Positions 21,001-33,000 of a stretch of 64,000 nt of DNA are shown one piece after another (the first letter of the stretch is position 1; each line of letters starts with the position of its first letter). The stretch is from Escherichia coli (lineage in GTDB: Bacteria; Pseudomonadota; Gammaproteobacteria; Enterobacterales; Enterobacteriaceae). Location of the stretch: the NCBI RefSeq assembly GCF_017348835.2, contig NZ_CP071375.1. One strand, written 5' to 3'. A program made the position numbers.

Positions 21001-24000
21001 CGCGCCGGAAGCAATAACACCCAGGCCGATGCCCGGGAAAATAAAGGCGTTGTTACACTGGGCGATAGGGTAGATTTTATCTTTCCATACCACTGGATTA
21101 AACGGGCTGCCCGTGGCGACCAGCGCGTTACCTTCGGTCCAGGCGATAATGTCCTGCGGTGTGGCTTCCACGCGTGACGTCGGGTTAGACAGCGGCATCA
21201 CGATCGGACGCGGACAGTGTTTATGCATCTCACGGATGATCTCTTCCGTAAACAGCCCTGTCTGTCCTGAGACGCCAATCAGAATATCTGGTTTTACATT
21301 GCGCACCACATCCAGCAGTGACAGCACATCGCTGTCGGTATCCCAGTCACTGAGGTTTTCGCGCTTCTGCACCAGTTTGGTCTGGAAAGGCAGCAGGTTC
21401 GGCATCTTGTCGGTCAGCAGGCCAAAGCGATCGACCATAAAGACTTTCTGCCGCGCCGCTTCCTCGCTTAATCCTTCACGCTGAGTCTGGGCGATGATCA
21501 TTTCGGCAATGCCGCATCCCGCTGAACCTGCGCCAAGGAAGACGATTTTTTTCTCGCTTAACTGACCACCTGCCGCGCGGCTTGCTGCGATCAGGGTGCC
21601 GACTGTTACCGCCGCAGTGCCCTGAATGTCATCGTTAAAGGAACAAATTTCATTGCGATAGCGGTTAAGTAACGGCATCGCATTTTTTTGTGCGAAGTCT
21701 TCAAACTGCAACAGCACGTCCGGCCAGCGTTGTTTCACAGCCTGGATAAATTCATCAACGAATTCATAGTATTCGTCGTCGGTGATACGCGGATTACGCC
21801 AGCCCATATACAGCGGATCGTTAAGCAGCTGTTGGTTGTTGGTGCCGACATCCAGCACCACCGGAAGGGTATACGCCGGGCTGATGCCGCCACAGGCGGT
21901 ATAGAGCGACAGTTTACCGATCGGAATGCCCATCCCGCCGATGCCCTGGTCACCAAGCCCCAGAATACGTTCACCGTCAGTCACCACAATCACTTTGATA
22001 TTATGGTTTGGTACGTTTTGCAGAATATCGTCCATATTGTGGCGGTTCTGGTAAGAGATAAACACGCCGCGTGAACGGCGGTAGATCTCAGAAAAACGCT
22101 CACAGGCTGCGCCGACGGTTGGGGTATAAATAACAGGCATCATCTCATCAAGATGATTGTTTACCAGACGGTAGAAGAGGGTTTCGTTGGTGTCCTGGAT
22201 GTTACGCAGGTAGATGTGTTTGTCGATTTCGGTTTTGAATCCCTGATACTGGATCCATGCTCGTTCCGCTTGTTCTTCGATGGTTTCGACCACTTCCGGC
22301 AGTAACCCCAGCAGGTTGAAGTTACGGCGTTCTTCCATGCTGAAGGCACTGCCTTTATTCAACAACGGAAATTCCAGCAGTACAGGGCCAGCGTAAGGGA
22401 TATAAAGCGAACGCTGTTTTTTTGTTTTTGGTTCCATGTCACTCACTCTTTTTTGAATATCCATCCCTGGCACGCTTTTATCGTCTTTGCTTTACCGCCA
22501 GGGCGTCGGCCCCAAGTATAAAGCAGATAAAAACAAAAACACCATTGCGCAGGCAATGGTGTTTAATCGTCATTGAGGACTGATGGTTATGAATTACTTT
22601 TCAGCGGGGCGTTTTCTGCCGGTTGGGTTATTTACCACGCTGGATTTGTCACCTTCGGTAACTATTTTGCGCTGGTTAGAAATTTTATGGTCCAGTCCAA
22701 GAATATGACGTGCCTGACGGTTCGATTTCATTTTAACTCCTCAATCCTGTTGCTAGTTTTAAGGACAACATCGCCGTAGCGAAGAAACACGTGCTAAACC
22801 CCTAAATTAGGTTGCCGATCAAGCATAGCACCTTAAAGCGTAGGGTGCTGGCCACTGACCACATAATTGATCGTTTGCTGGTAGATATCACTGAGGATGT
22901 CGTTATCAGAAGCTTCCACCCATTTGGTCAGCTCCATGAGAATGTCATCTTCAGTGACAACACCGTGCTCTGCCCGAAGGCCTTGCTCAATGGCATTAAC
23001 CTGAGCGGGTTCTGCTGTTGAATTTTCTGCCTGATAATAAGTAAACATAGTGATTCTCCGTGTCTGTGTATTTATGGTGTCTGCTACGGATCGCAGATTT
23101 ATAAAGCACATTCAGCATGGCAAATATTTGCCGCTTCGTTGTTAAGATTAGTCCTGGTTGATGATTTTTATATTTTAACCCCATGATATTGATAGGTATT
23201 ATTATTGTGATGAGTTGATTAATATTGATGCAATCTCTCTTGAGATATATATTTCAGGTTATCTATTGTGGGAATTTAATTTAAGTGCAGAAGTAATATT
23301 TTCGCCGTATTTTATTCGGAATATCCTGCTTATCCTCGTGCGGTTTCTCACGTAGTCTATAATTTCCTTTTTAAGCCCACAGGAGAGCAACAATGACAAT
23401 CCATAAGAAAGGTCAGGCACACTGGGAAGGCGATATCAAACGCGGGAAGGGAACAGTATCCACCGAGAGCGGCGTGCTGAACCAACAGCCGTATGGATTT
23501 AACACGCGTTTTGAAGGCGAAAAAGGAACCAACCCTGAAGAACTGATTGGCGCAGCGCATGCCGCATGTTTCTCAATGGCGCTTTCATTAATGCTGGGAG
23601 AAGCAGGATTCACGCCAACATCGATTGATACCACCGCCGATGTGTCGCTGGATAAAGTGGATGCCGGTTTTGCGATTACGAAAATCGCACTGAAGAGTGA
23701 AGTTGCGGTGCCGGGTATTGATGCCTCTACCTTTGACGGCATCATCCAGAAAGCAAAAGCAGGATGCCCGGTCTCTCAGGTACTGAAAGCGGAAATTACG
23801 CTGGATTACCAGTTGAAATCGTAAAGCATTGCCGGATGACGCGTCATCCGGCGAACACTTACTGCGCTACCCAACCGCCATCCATATTCCACGCCACCCC
23901 ACGCACTTGTGCTGCCGCATCCGAACAGAGAAACAGCGCCAGTTCACCCAGTTGTTGCGGAGTCACAAATTCACGAGAAGGCTGTTTTTCTGCCAGTAAG

Positions 24001-30000: not shown

Positions 30001-33000
30001 GGTGGCAGCGATGCCGTCATTTGCAGCCAACGTTCTGCCTCCGGTGCTGAAAACCTTCCGCGATTGTTATTCAGGGATTAATGTCACCGTGCACGATGTG
30101 GTGAATGAGCAGGTGATCGAAATGGTGAGCGAAGGGCGTGTGGAGATGGGTATTGCCTTTGAACCTGACTATTGCGGCCATGTGCATTTTACCCCACTGG
30201 GCGTGGATCGGTTTGTCGCTATTGTTCCAGCCGATTCACGACTGGCAAATCGGCAACGCGTGAGTTGGCGGGATTTGCTGACGCTCGATTTTATCACCCT
30301 CCAGCGACCGTCAGCCGTCAGGTTGATGCTGGAGGAGCAGTTGGCACAAAGTGGAACGCAACTGGAAGTGGCGCTGGAAAGCCATCAACTGGTTACGGTT
30401 GGGCGGCTGGTGGCAAACGGTTTGGGAGGAAGCGCTGTGCCTGCGCTGTGCCGCAGGCAGATGAGCGAACTGGGCGCAGTGTGTCTGGAACTGGATAATC
30501 CAGTGATTGAGCGACGAGTAGGCGTACTGCGTTCGTCACACCATAAGCTTTCTACTGCGGCGCAGGCGTTGATGGAAACGTTAAAAAAAACCTATGACGC
30601 ATAACGTTTCCGCAGACATGCAATAGCCGGATGTCGCGTCCTACAGCGCCCGCCAGCACCGGAGCTCACGTCCGTCCTCCCTTATTGCTAATGATTGCCG
30701 GACTTCACATCCGTGGGTTGCCAGAGGGCAACGTTCGTAGAAAAAACAGCCTTGCGGCAACGTGCGGTTTCCCGGCAGATCCGTTTTACGTAATGCCCAT
30801 TCTTCCTCCAGTGGTTTATCAATGGCGGGGAGGGAATCCAGCAATAATCGGGTGTATGGATGTGCCGGAGCCGTTAGCACCTGTTGCGCTTCCCCTAATT
30901 CCACAATCTGCCCGAGATACATCACCGCCACCCGATCGCTCATATGACGTATCACCGAGACATTGTGTGAAATCAGCACATAAGTCAGCCCGTGATTTTC
31001 CTGTAGCGTTACCAGTAAATTGAGGATCTGCGCCTGCACGGAGATATCCAGCGCCGAGGTTGGCTCATCAAGCACAATCACGTCAGGCTGCGAAGAGAGT
31101 GCTCTGGCAATGGCGATGCGTTGCCGCTGCCCGCCGGAGAACGCATGAGGCAGGCGGTCGAGATACTCCGGACGAATACCCACCTGCACAGCCAGCTCCT
31201 CTGCCAACGCTCGCCGCTGTTGTTCACTACTACGCTTAGCTATCCAGAGCGGTTCTGTGATGATGCGCCACACCGGTAAGCGCGGATTGAGCGAAGAGAG
31301 CGGGTCCTGAAACACCATCTGCATAATGCGTTGTGAGCCAGAACGGATGTATTGCCCGTGGCTCGGTTGCAGCATACCCATTAAAAGCTGTGCGAGGGTG
31401 CTTTTGCCGCAGCCTGACTCGCCGACGATCCCTAAGGTTTCACCACGGCGGATCTGTAAATCAATACCATTAATGGCATGAACATGTTCCGTAGTTTTAC
31501 CAAGCCAGTTTTTACGGGCCGGGAAATTGATATGGACGTCGCGTAACGTTAATAACGTGTCAGACACTTATGACCTCCTGCTGCGGATACCAACAGGCGC
31601 AGCGCTGGTTGTTGTCACCACACGCTGTCAGCGCCGGGACGTTTTCACACTGTGCACCTGCCGCATAGCAACGATCGCGAAAAGCGCAGCCGTCAGGCAA
31701 ATGGGTGAGGTTTGGTACCGTCCCTGGAATGGCGGGTAATGGCTGGCGTGGTACTCCATGTTCTGGTGCGCATTGCAGCAAACCAATGGTATACGGATGC
31801 CGGGGATGATGGATAACGTCTGCCGTCCCGCCGCTTTCAATTACGCTTCCGGCATACATCACGTAAACGCTATCGCACAGTTGCGACACCACGGCCATAT
31901 CATGGCTGATGAACAGTACCGCAGTTCCACTGGCGCGGGCTTTATGTTTAAGCAAACGCAGTACCTGCAACTGTACCGTGACGTCCAGCGCCGTAGTCGG
32001 TTCGTCGGCAATAATCAATTGCGGCTCGCAGGAGAATGCCAGCGCAATCATTACCCGCTGGCGCATACCACCTGAAAGCTCAAACGGATAGCGCGACATA
32101 ACTTCCACGGCATCCGGGATTTGCATCTCTTCCAGCAGGGCAATCGCTTTAGCTCTGGCTTCCCGACGACTTATTGGTTGATGATGGCGGATCACGTCCA
32201 TCATCTGAAGACCTATTCGACGTGTCGGATTGAGGGCGGTCATCGGTTCCTGAAAGATCATCGCCACTCGTGCGCCGCGCCACTGACGAAGCTGTTTTTC
32301 CCGAGCGTTAAGAACATCGTCTCCCAGCAGTGAAATCTGCCCCCGATGTACGCAATAACTGCCCGTCGGTAGCAGACGCATAATCAGCATTGCGGTGACT
32401 GATTTACCTGAGCCGGATTCTCCCACCAGACCGACAATTTCACCGCGGTTAATCTGCAAGGACACATTGTTGAGCGCGTGAACATCACCGTTAAAACCGG
32501 GGAAACTCAAATGCAGCTGTTGAATGTCCAGAACGGGTTGGGTCATGACTGCTTTCCTCCTGCTTTCGGGTCAAGCAGATCGCGAATACCATCACCAAAG
32601 AGATTAAACCCGACGGCGGTAAGCAAAATCGCTGCCCCCGGAAATACGCAATACCACCACTGATCGAGTACATAGTTGCGACCATTTGCTACCATCGCGC
32701 CCCATTCAGCACTCGGTTGTTGAGCACCCAGGCCAATAAATCCCAACGTGGCGGCCATTAAAATCGCGCTACCGATATCCAGCGATGCCTGCACGATCAG
32801 CGGCGGCAGGGAGTTACGTAAAATATGCCAGTTGATCAGATGCCAACGAGACGCGCCAAAGGTTTTCGCCGCCTGAACATAGGTATACTGGCGTACAACT
32901 AATGCTTGCCCCCGCGCCAGGCGCACATAAAAGGGAATTCGCACAATAGCAATCGCCAGCATGGCGTTAAATAAACTCGGCCCGAGAGCGGCAGCCAGTG

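Follow-up and report, generated by a model that had tools for sequence, protein, structure and literature searches.

Seven intact open reading frames (ORFs) that separate osmC from ddpF in an Escherichia coli genome (NCBI RefSeq assembly GCF_017348835.2, contig NZ_CP071375.1) likely constitute an inducible operon for the catabolism of 3-hydroxybutyrate and acetoacetate, which would be ancestral to Escherichia as well as Citrobacter and would have been deleted in most E. coli. The block occupies positions 23859-30604 of the window, i.e. the whole stretch of 64,000 nucleotides that was analysed, counted from its first letter. It comprises a LysR-type regulator on the plus strand and, divergent from it, six minus-strand genes for the two subunits of a CoA-transferase, a thiolase, a dehydrogenase belonging to the 3-hydroxyacyl-CoA dehydrogenase (HAD) family, a permease and a short-chain dehydrogenase/reductase (SDR).

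According to this reconstruction, the permease would import 3-hydroxybutyrate and probably acetoacetate as well. The SDR, BdhA, would oxidize (R)-3-hydroxybutyrate to acetoacetate with NAD+, and the HAD-family enzyme would produce the same acetoacetate from free (S)-3-hydroxybutyrate. [quoted passage not shown] The entire operon would be activated by the divergently encoded LysR protein, presumably in response to acetoacetate or 3-hydroxybutyrate. The first-pass annotation of this stretch had already postulated a complete route from imported 3-hydroxybutyrate or acetoacetate to acetyl-CoA, and such a route is indeed encoded as judged by the family assignments.

Encoded enzymes and the predicted route to acetyl-CoA

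An ORF scan reproduced all seven genes at the coordinates first assigned to them, including the intergenic gaps of 11, 45, 9 and 2 bp within the operon and a single overlap of 11 bp, where the thiolase gene meets the HAD gene. Since each of the six operon genes is preceded by a Shine-Dalgarno-like motif, all block proteins but the permease match Pfam or NCBIfam models at E <= 1e-40 and the permease has thousands of conserved homologues, the ORFs are real genes and not chance reading frames. The BLASTP and profile searches proposed in the first-pass annotation thus placed every protein except the permease in a family. In line with the impression of native codon usage, the GC content of the block (0.53-0.55) and its third-position GC (0.50-0.59) both match those of the flanking genes. 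E. coli PE164, which is 100% identical to the window, carries the same seven genes in its NCBI PGAP annotation. Hundreds of genomes already carry annotations of this locus whose product names are essentially right, and in this respect it is an ordinary accessory operon.

The SDR (23859-24629, minus strand, 256 amino acids) is, on the strength of its sequence relationships, a D-(R)-3-hydroxybutyrate dehydrogenase (BdhA, EC 1.1.1.30). It exceeds the cut-offs of two curated NCBIfam models, PRK12429 (371 bits, cut-off 258) and TIGR01963 (343.5 bits, cut-off 307), and matches the dehydrogenase CF3HBD (PDB 5YSS) over its full length with 489 bits and the Pseudomonas putida enzyme BDH (2Q2Q) with 390 bits, in agreement with its former description as BdhA-like. 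Alignments to 5YSS, 2Q2Q and 2YZ7 are full-length and nearly gap-free, with conservation of the segments GIQ, SVHGL, KSAYVAAKHG and PLVQQQI, which we take, from the structures of the Pseudomonas fragi and Alcaligenes faecalis enzymes, to hold the catalytic Ser-Tyr-Lys as well as the carboxylate-binding Gln/His/Lys/Gln residues. In total, the protein shares 70-88% identity with enzymes of demonstrated D-3-hydroxybutyrate activity. Among these is CF3HBD, an orthologue of the window SDR, which was purified, proved active on 3-hydroxybutyrate and originates from a Citrobacter-like metagenomic fosmid (PMC6265244). This fosmid is up to 88% identical to Citrobacter genomes. CF3HBD was studied for its promiscuous lactam-cyclase activity, in work that did not deal with the surrounding operon or with its role in physiology.

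The CoA-transferase is encoded by two genes lying 2 bp apart, for subunit A (28865-29572, minus strand, 235 amino acids) and subunit B (28206-28862, minus strand, 218 amino acids). Subunit A scores 248.8 bits against TIGR02429 (cut-off 128.5) and subunit B 327 bits against TIGR02428 (cut-off 243.6), so that both pass the thresholds of the pcaI/scoA and pcaJ/scoB families represented by these models. The former designation as AtoD/AtoA-like did not hold: subunit A remains below the NCBIfam AtoD equivalog NF007394 (200.3 bits vs a cut-off of 315) and matches SCOT subunit A of Helicobacter pylori and Bacillus subtilis (3RRL, 3CDK) with about 310 bits vs 175 bits for E. coli AtoD (1K6D, 5DBN). SCOT entries occupy all of the first 11 places among its PDB matches (310 to 210 bits); behind them come the 3-oxoacid CoA-transferase A subunit 9CQ2 (185 bits), an acetoacetate:butyrate/acetate transferase of clostridial origin (180 bits) and only then AtoD. 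Residues 45-48 of subunit B read SENG, and the (S)ENG motif of this subunit contains the catalytic glutamate of family I CoA-transferases. By these sequence criteria the enzyme is SCOT-like, i.e. a family I transferase of the succinyl-CoA:3-oxoacid type and not an AtoDA-like one, its CoA donor is probably succinyl-CoA, and its name can be corrected accordingly. Neither the SDR nor the CoA-transferase grouped with families of unrelated specificity, as they matched the BdhA and SCOT families, respectively.

The thiolase gene (26991-28196, minus strand) encodes a predicted acetoacetyl-CoA thiolase (acetyl-CoA C-acetyltransferase) of 401 amino acids with the Pfam domains Thiolase_N and Thiolase_C. 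It passes TIGR01930 (496.7 bits, cut-off 240.6), reaches 673 against the acetoacetyl-CoA thiolase model PRK05656, slightly under the cut-off of 688, and presents Cys88, His350 and Cys380 within the motifs VCGSG, GHPIG and LCVGGG, so the original assignment as a thiolase stands.

Within E. coli K-12, the closest analogy is provided by the atoDAEB operon under control of the AtoSC two-component system, which likewise converts acetoacetate via acetoacetyl-CoA to two acetyl-CoA by means of a two-subunit family I CoA-transferase and a thiolase. The ato transferase, however, is of the acetyl-CoA:acetoacetate type whereas that of the block is SCOT-like; furthermore, the ato system lacks a 3-hydroxybutyrate dehydrogenase, employs the transporter AtoE and two-component regulation, and resides at another locus.

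Beyond E. coli, conservation was scanned with one genome per species, yielding 80 loci. The complete set of seven genes, with its order unchanged, occurs in Escherichia, Citrobacter, Klebsiella, Raoultella, Serratia, Phytobacter, Kosakonia, Enterobacter, Pluralibacter and Azomonas. A different arrangement, namely HAD, regulator, permease, bdhA, scoA, scoB and thiolase, is found in Pseudomonas oryzihabitans, P. luteola, P. asuensis and Halotalea, where the regulator between HAD and permease is not of the LysR type but a sigma-54 activator with a PAS domain (P. oryzihabitans, locus L052, 9846-11357). The counterpart in P. aeruginosa is dhcR-dhcAB-atoB-bdhA (PA1998-PA2003). The pseudomonad pathway for 3-hydroxybutyrate and acetoacetate also comprises BdhA, a two-subunit SCOT-type transferase and a thiolase, with a permease of a homologous family beside bdhA, and the sequence BdhA, SCOT, thiolase has genetic support in P. 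putida. There, in contrast to the enterobacterial six-gene operon with its divergent LysR gene and additional HAD-family dehydrogenase, the genes are scattered and a sigma-54 activator is employed.

Two alternative functions were weighed against these data. Every step of the pathway is reversible, and the Klebsiella module adjoins budA and alsS, which belong to acetoin/butanediol fermentation; the operon could therefore run synthetically as a fermentative electron sink, in which two acetyl-CoA are condensed to acetoacetyl-CoA and converted via acetoacetate to 3-hydroxybutyrate for export. We regard this as extremely improbable, since a substrate-inducible LysR-type regulator together with a permease is typical of catabolic operons, homologous Pseudomonas genes are needed for growth on compounds that yield 3-hydroxybutyrate, and the vicinity of budA/alsS is not kept in other genera. 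Alternatively, the module might target another short hydroxy or keto acid, such as 3-hydroxyvalerate, a different (3S)-hydroxy acid or some compound that yields acetoacetate, with 3-hydroxybutyrate as a side substrate. The substrates of permease, LysR protein and HAD-family enzyme are indeed assigned indirectly, the latter two match no equivalog, and free-acid HAD enzymes act on compounds as diverse as L-gulonate, 5-formyl-3-hydroxy-2-methylpyridine-4-carboxylate, carnitine and 3-hydroxy-5-oxohexanoate. Nevertheless, such a role appears improbable in view of the high identity of BdhA to enzymes with demonstrated activity on D-3-hydroxybutyrate, the combination of SCOT and thiolase, which is the canonical acetoacetate route, and the association of the cluster with bdhA across about 12 genera. 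Hence, catabolism of 3-hydroxybutyrate and acetoacetate is the preferred function. Two negative results weigh against this function: the searchable literature, outside of which most subscription journals lie, yielded no experiment with the osmC–ddpF block of E. coli or with growth of its carriers on 3-hydroxybutyrate, and the permease matches neither Pfam models, including GntP_permease (PF02447, TCDB 2.A.8), nor NCBIfam models even at E <= 10.

Substrate form of the HAD-family dehydrogenase

The chemistry outlined above is textbook catabolism of ketone bodies and of monomers of polyhydroxybutyrate (PHB), and the HAD-family paralogue (26078-27001, minus strand, 307 amino acids) is the sole part with a potential for novelty. 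This NAD+ dehydrogenase matches Pfam 3HCDH_N (1.6e-45) and 3HCDH (7.1e-19), and its catalytic residues S119, H140, E152 and N191 are conserved. Its original description as a 3-hydroxyacyl-CoA dehydrogenase is therefore accurate with regard to fold and catalytic set, but not with regard to the CoA-contact residues and the curated cut-offs: the protein attains at best 182-196 bits against NCBIfam CoA-ester dehydrogenase models whose thresholds lie at 347-508, and PGAP names it merely a 'family protein'. We hold with modest confidence that it would act as a free-acid (S)-3-hydroxybutyrate dehydrogenase, because the CoA-contact residues are replaced, an arginine of the lambda-crystallin type is present and homologues are paired with a permease without CoA enzymes.

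In an alignment with Hbd from Clostridium butyricum (4KUG) that is gap-free over the N-terminal domain, Lys56, Lys50 and Lys54 of Hbd correspond to Gln58, Glu52 and Cys56, respectively, and Asn221 of Hbd corresponds to Arg226. Lys56 and Asn221 of Hbd contact CoA, and both are absent from CsTfD of Clostridium scatologenes, which is annotated as '3-hydroxyacyl-CoA dehydrogenase' and was verified to be a free-acid (S)-3-hydroxycarboxylate dehydrogenase (PMC10470551). The C-terminal motif SLGRRYAMVGPLE of the window protein can be aligned gap-free with GLGMRYAFIGPLE from the human homologue of lambda-crystallin (3F3S) and with GIGYKIAVIGPMA of 4OM8, whereas CoA-ester enzymes of the Hbd type need two gaps across this stretch. 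Within the motif, a G-x-[RK]-[YWL] element, which goes with a longer loop that CoA-ester enzymes lack, places Arg226 of the window enzyme opposite an Arg in lambda-crystallin and a Lys in 4OM8. Among the 116 nearest full-length cluster representatives, drawn from 1.84 billion proteins, the Arg226 position is occupied by Arg in 112 and by Lys in three, and Lys is not among the six commonest residues at the position of Hbd Lys56.

The arginine of lambda-crystallin serves as a carboxylate binder. Free-acid members of the family share with the window enzyme the two-domain fold, the Ser/His/Glu/Asn set and the loss of Lys56 and Asn221, as exemplified by lambda-crystallin (3ADO/3F3S), 4OM8 and CsTfD; they differ in that the substrate of the window enzyme is suggested by its operon context. 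Lambda-crystallin is L-gulonate 3-dehydrogenase, and 4OM8 is 5-formyl-3-hydroxy-2-methylpyridine-4-carboxylate dehydrogenase. Another free-acid member of the HAD family is the (S)-3-hydroxybutyrate dehydrogenase of D. ruminis, which may be represented by the PDB entries 9W15 and 9JHE, an assumption of ours; these entries have a loop of the Hbd-type length.

Gene context provides a second line of evidence. The HAD gene is paired with the permease alone in four of the loci examined (L007, L082, L084 and L086), and on a metagenomic contig of 3.3 kb a 48%-identical HAD homologue overlaps a 67%-identical permease copy by 4 bp, with no gene for a CoA enzyme. HAD-permease pairs devoid of transferase and thiolase genes within 9 kb were also detected in Herbaspirillum, Massilia and a metagenome-assembled genome of the Burkholderiaceae, and a Paraburkholderia homologue of 50% identity has a PHB depolymerase gene 1.7 kb away. 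The context of more distant homologues, such as those of Azotobacter vinelandii, Herbaspirillum and an actinobacterium (P0249), was mostly uninformative. The subfamily is delimited by identities of at least 58% within enterobacteria and pseudomonads and of at most 48% to the nearest other cluster, while identity to characterised HAD members amounts to about 30-36%. One homologue, P0002, on a Logan contig of 1,054 bp, combines an N-terminal half identical to the E. coli protein with a C-terminal half identical to that of Klebsiella; it arose either by natural recombination or as an artefact of chimeric assembly.

Several observations speak against a free-acid role. The argument itself is built on sequence and gene context; the best PDB matches are mixed, with 166 bits for the free-acid enzyme 4OM8 and 140 bits for Hbd of Clostridium; and the 11-bp overlap with the thiolase gene, found in Escherichia and Citrobacter, fits a CoA-ester role as well. 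The same pathway could accordingly operate with a true (S)-3-hydroxybutyryl-CoA dehydrogenase, the transferase activating (S)-3-hydroxybutyrate and the resulting CoA ester being oxidized to acetoacetyl-CoA, in analogy to the CoA-dependent L-3-hydroxybutyrate route of Sinorhizobium meliloti. This variant seems rather unlikely, given that the enzyme lacks the CoA-contact residues of Hbd, reaches no cut-off for CoA-ester dehydrogenases and belongs to a clade with a near-invariant Arg common to free-acid enzymes; in addition, HAD-permease pairs occur without nearby CoA enzymes, and in Pseudomonas the HAD gene does not adjoin the thiolase gene.

If the free-acid assignment is adopted, two proposals of the first-pass annotation need revision. 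Of the two parallel entries into the pathway, oxidation of the free acid by the SDR is retained and the CoA-ester route becomes doubtful, because Lys56 and Asn221 of Hbd are replaced and the free-acid Arg motif is present. Likewise, use of both enantiomers is still plausible, but acetoacetate would then be formed by a pair of dehydrogenases that each act on a free acid: BdhA is specific for the (R) form, enzymes of the HAD family for the (S) form. We tentatively put forward that the HAD-family proteins in question form an uncharacterised subfamily of free-acid (S)-3-hydroxybutyrate dehydrogenases which, together with BdhA, would make up a module for both enantiomers, and that possession of the operon may then decide which E. 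coli lineages can live on ketone bodies of the host or on PHB-derived 3-hydroxybutyrate. Should the free-acid role hold true, the name '3-hydroxyacyl-CoA dehydrogenase family protein' would be mis-suggestive for thousands of entries in the databases.

Permease and control region

The permease (24641-26032, minus strand, 463 amino acids) is the probable importer of 3-hydroxybutyrate and acetoacetate, a role deduced from its constant position beside bdhA, with which it is always clustered across Enterobacterales and Pseudomonas, and from the phenotype of PP_3074 in P. putida. This permease gene shares an operon with hbdH and its loss causes a modest fitness defect on a 3-hydroxybutyrate-yielding substrate; the likeness invoked here is one of operon position. 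The protein is 95% identical to its Citrobacter counterpart and 81-83% identical to proteins of Pantoea and Pseudomonas, and databases name it either 'GntP family permease' or 'D-beta-hydroxybutyrate permease'.

The GntP label, which the first-pass annotation had also applied, was not confirmed by Pfam or NCBIfam and is unsupported by current family models. No precomputed Pfam domain for the permease is carried by any of the 120 homologues listed, and no PDB entry was matched by sequence. BLASTP detects a weak collinear similarity to E. coli GntT (25% over 159 residues, E 0.004), and hhalign assigns the same pair a probability of 1.5% (E 0.034). The term 'GntP-like' is compatible with this evidence, yet not demonstrated by it. 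An AlphaFold model of low confidence (pLDDT 60) has its best PDB folds in MleN, TRAP SiaQM, NaDC1/NaS1 and YdaH, with TM-scores of 0.3-0.5, all of which are elevator-type carboxylate or anion carriers of the ion transporter superfamily. The most conserved segments of the permease family, DALPGTPQIQNIIP, LAGITGSASGG and ASGGMDTLPHNGAV (homologues P0121-P0240), coincide with the least confident AlphaFold2 regions, and may represent the re-entrant hairpins of an elevator-type carrier.

The LysR-type regulator (29714-30604, plus strand, 296 amino acids), the presumed activator of the operon, matches Pfam HTH_1 (2e-20) and LysR_substrate (2.3e-41) and reaches no NCBIfam equivalog cut-off. Its divergent orientation relative to the operon is conserved in nine genera. 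The 141-bp control region between the two transcription units (29573-29713) contains an inverted repeat, ATCATT-N10-AATGAT (29602-29623), whose arms are conserved and whose spacer is variable in an alignment of three genera, as well as a core that is likewise conserved, TGATTTGTTAATTTTAAATTTGTGACTCA (29620-29648), and GTTAA(T/C) elements that recur. Among 14 intergenic sequences from nine genera, those of most enterobacterial genera show recognisable repeat arms and a recognisable core, which are degenerate in two of these genera; neither element is evident in the intergenic sequence of Azomonas.

A minus-strand promoter for the operon that resembles the sigma-70 type (TTAACA at 29630-29625, AATGAT at 29607-29602) overlaps the inverted repeat, with the reservation that the promoter scan returned no more sites than expected by chance. 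Considered as a dyad of 22 bp, ATCAT-N12-ATGAT, the repeat is wider than the classic T-N11-A box of the LysR class. An operator assignment was attempted and abandoned, as none of the conserved motifs could be tied to the LysR regulator; the inverted repeat and the core are thus no more than candidate sites.

Probable ancestry and loss of the block in Escherichia coli

The adjacency of osmC and ddpF in K-12, from which the first-pass annotation had set out, was confirmed in MG1655, where 55 bp separate osmC (b1482) from ddpF (b1483) and the block is absent. Presence/absence mapping, as proposed in that annotation, was extended to 5,426 complete E. coli genomes. The block is present in 231 of them (4.3%), always on the chromosome and including Shiga-toxin-producing strains of serotype O145:H28, and 215 of these 231 copies are at least 99% identical. 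The K-12-type junction occurs in 4,057 genomes (74.8%), and about 1,100 (about 20%) possess osmC without an adjacent ddpF.

Outside the typical E. coli, all 16 Citrobacter loci with both flanks have the block between osmC and ddpF, as do two divergent Escherichia lineages. Nucleotide identity between E. coli and Citrobacter is 75-83% for the block genes and 72-85% for the flanking genes. Comparable parallels are seen within Escherichia: relative to the window, strain 2013C-4282 shows 96.9% identity in the block and 96.2/96.6% in the flanks, and SCPM-O-B-8794 shows 92.1% in the block and 91.5/89.0% in the flanks. Because the same junction is shared with Citrobacter and divergent Escherichia, and because block and flanks have diverged alike, an ancestral position between osmC and ddpF, followed by loss in most E. 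coli, is favoured over gain. The first-pass annotation had considered loss as plausible as gain; the plausibility of loss is upheld, the equal weighting is not, for these same two reasons.

At the junctions, homology with the empty site of K-12 stops 22 bp past the osmC stop codon (23846) and resumes at the ddpF stop codon, so that about 6.8 kb in the window stand opposite about 33 bp of sequence resembling repetitive extragenic palindromic (REP) elements in K-12 and BL21. Pairwise alignment of the junctions revealed an imperfect direct repeat of 18 bp, AT(T/A)GCCGGATG(A/T)CGCGTC, with 16 of 18 bases identical between the left copy ATTGCCGGATGACGCGTC (23828-23845) and the right copy ATAGCCGGATGTCGCGTC (30623-30640), the latter abutting the ddpF stop codon. 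The left copy sits in a perfect palindrome of 22 bp (23831-23852) in the gap between osmC and the SDR gene, which are convergent. Insertion of a mobile element was examined as an origin and rejected, as the junctions contain no integrase, insertion sequence (IS) element or tRNA.

Two findings run counter to a simple history of ancestral presence and deletion. In Escherichia sp. E1V33 (L012), the block is 98.0% identical to that of the window and the flanks are only 91.5-91.9% identical; since the block is far more similar than its flanks, this implies that it has also been exchanged, and recently so, between E. coli and a divergent Escherichia lineage by homologous recombination. Furthermore, simple recombination between the 18-bp repeats would not give the 55-bp empty site of K-12, in which the REP-like hairpin is fuller. 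Recent acquisition by horizontal transfer in a minority of E. coli would accommodate the exchange evident in E1V33, the flanking direct repeat, the low frequency of the block and the near-identity of most of its copies. We nonetheless judge such a gain quite unlikely: Citrobacter and divergent Escherichia share the insertion point, divergence of the block equals that of its flanks between genera and within E. coli, base composition is native, the junctions are free of integrase, IS element and tRNA, and independent partial and larger deletions have occurred at the locus. Descent from a common ancestor with subsequent loss consequently remains the preferred history.

Two E. coli strains illustrate the structural variability of this region. 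In N56 (L095, NZ_CM165908.1, 6094-9114), osmC abuts dosP and both the ddpXABCDF operon and the block are gone, which exemplifies the genomes with osmC but no adjacent ddpF and constitutes a third allele at a locus prone to deletion. In BEC1-S17-ESBL-07 (L092, 3865-4516), a deletion has removed the 3' two-thirds of the permease gene along with bdhA, osmC, bdm, sra and maeA, leaving a truncated operon beside adhP. As for a plasmid origin, this was likewise discarded: no copy was found on an E. coli plasmid, and the sole matches filed as plasmids are chromosomal-looking Klebsiella records of 73% identity. Among the plasmid-filed records, K. pneumoniae p2B30155 (NZ_CP074582.1, L005) and CP125156.1 (5.37 Mb) bear budA/alsS together with the complete module; typed as non-mobilizable, they resemble chromosomal sequence under a wrong label.

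The flanking genes themselves lie outside the module. On the left, osmC (23393-23824, plus strand) is annotated in PE164 and K-12, and on the right, ddpF (30641-31567, minus strand) was recovered by the ORF scan and is annotated in the same two genomes. Further to the left, the mechanical ORF for bdm (22833-23111, minus strand) encodes 92 amino acids vs 71 (216 bp) in the annotation, the surplus being an upstream extension and not a different gene.

To our knowledge, K-12 encodes no BdhA, and metabolic models based on this strain do not contain the block. The practical value of the finding is modest. With respect to the biology of the species, the locus clearly exemplifies how a metabolic operon of ancestral origin persists as a presence/absence polymorphism, with carriers that include many animal isolates. 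Judging from the enzymes encoded, these carriers should be able to grow on D-3-hydroxybutyrate, which is a ketone body of the host as well as the monomer of PHB.

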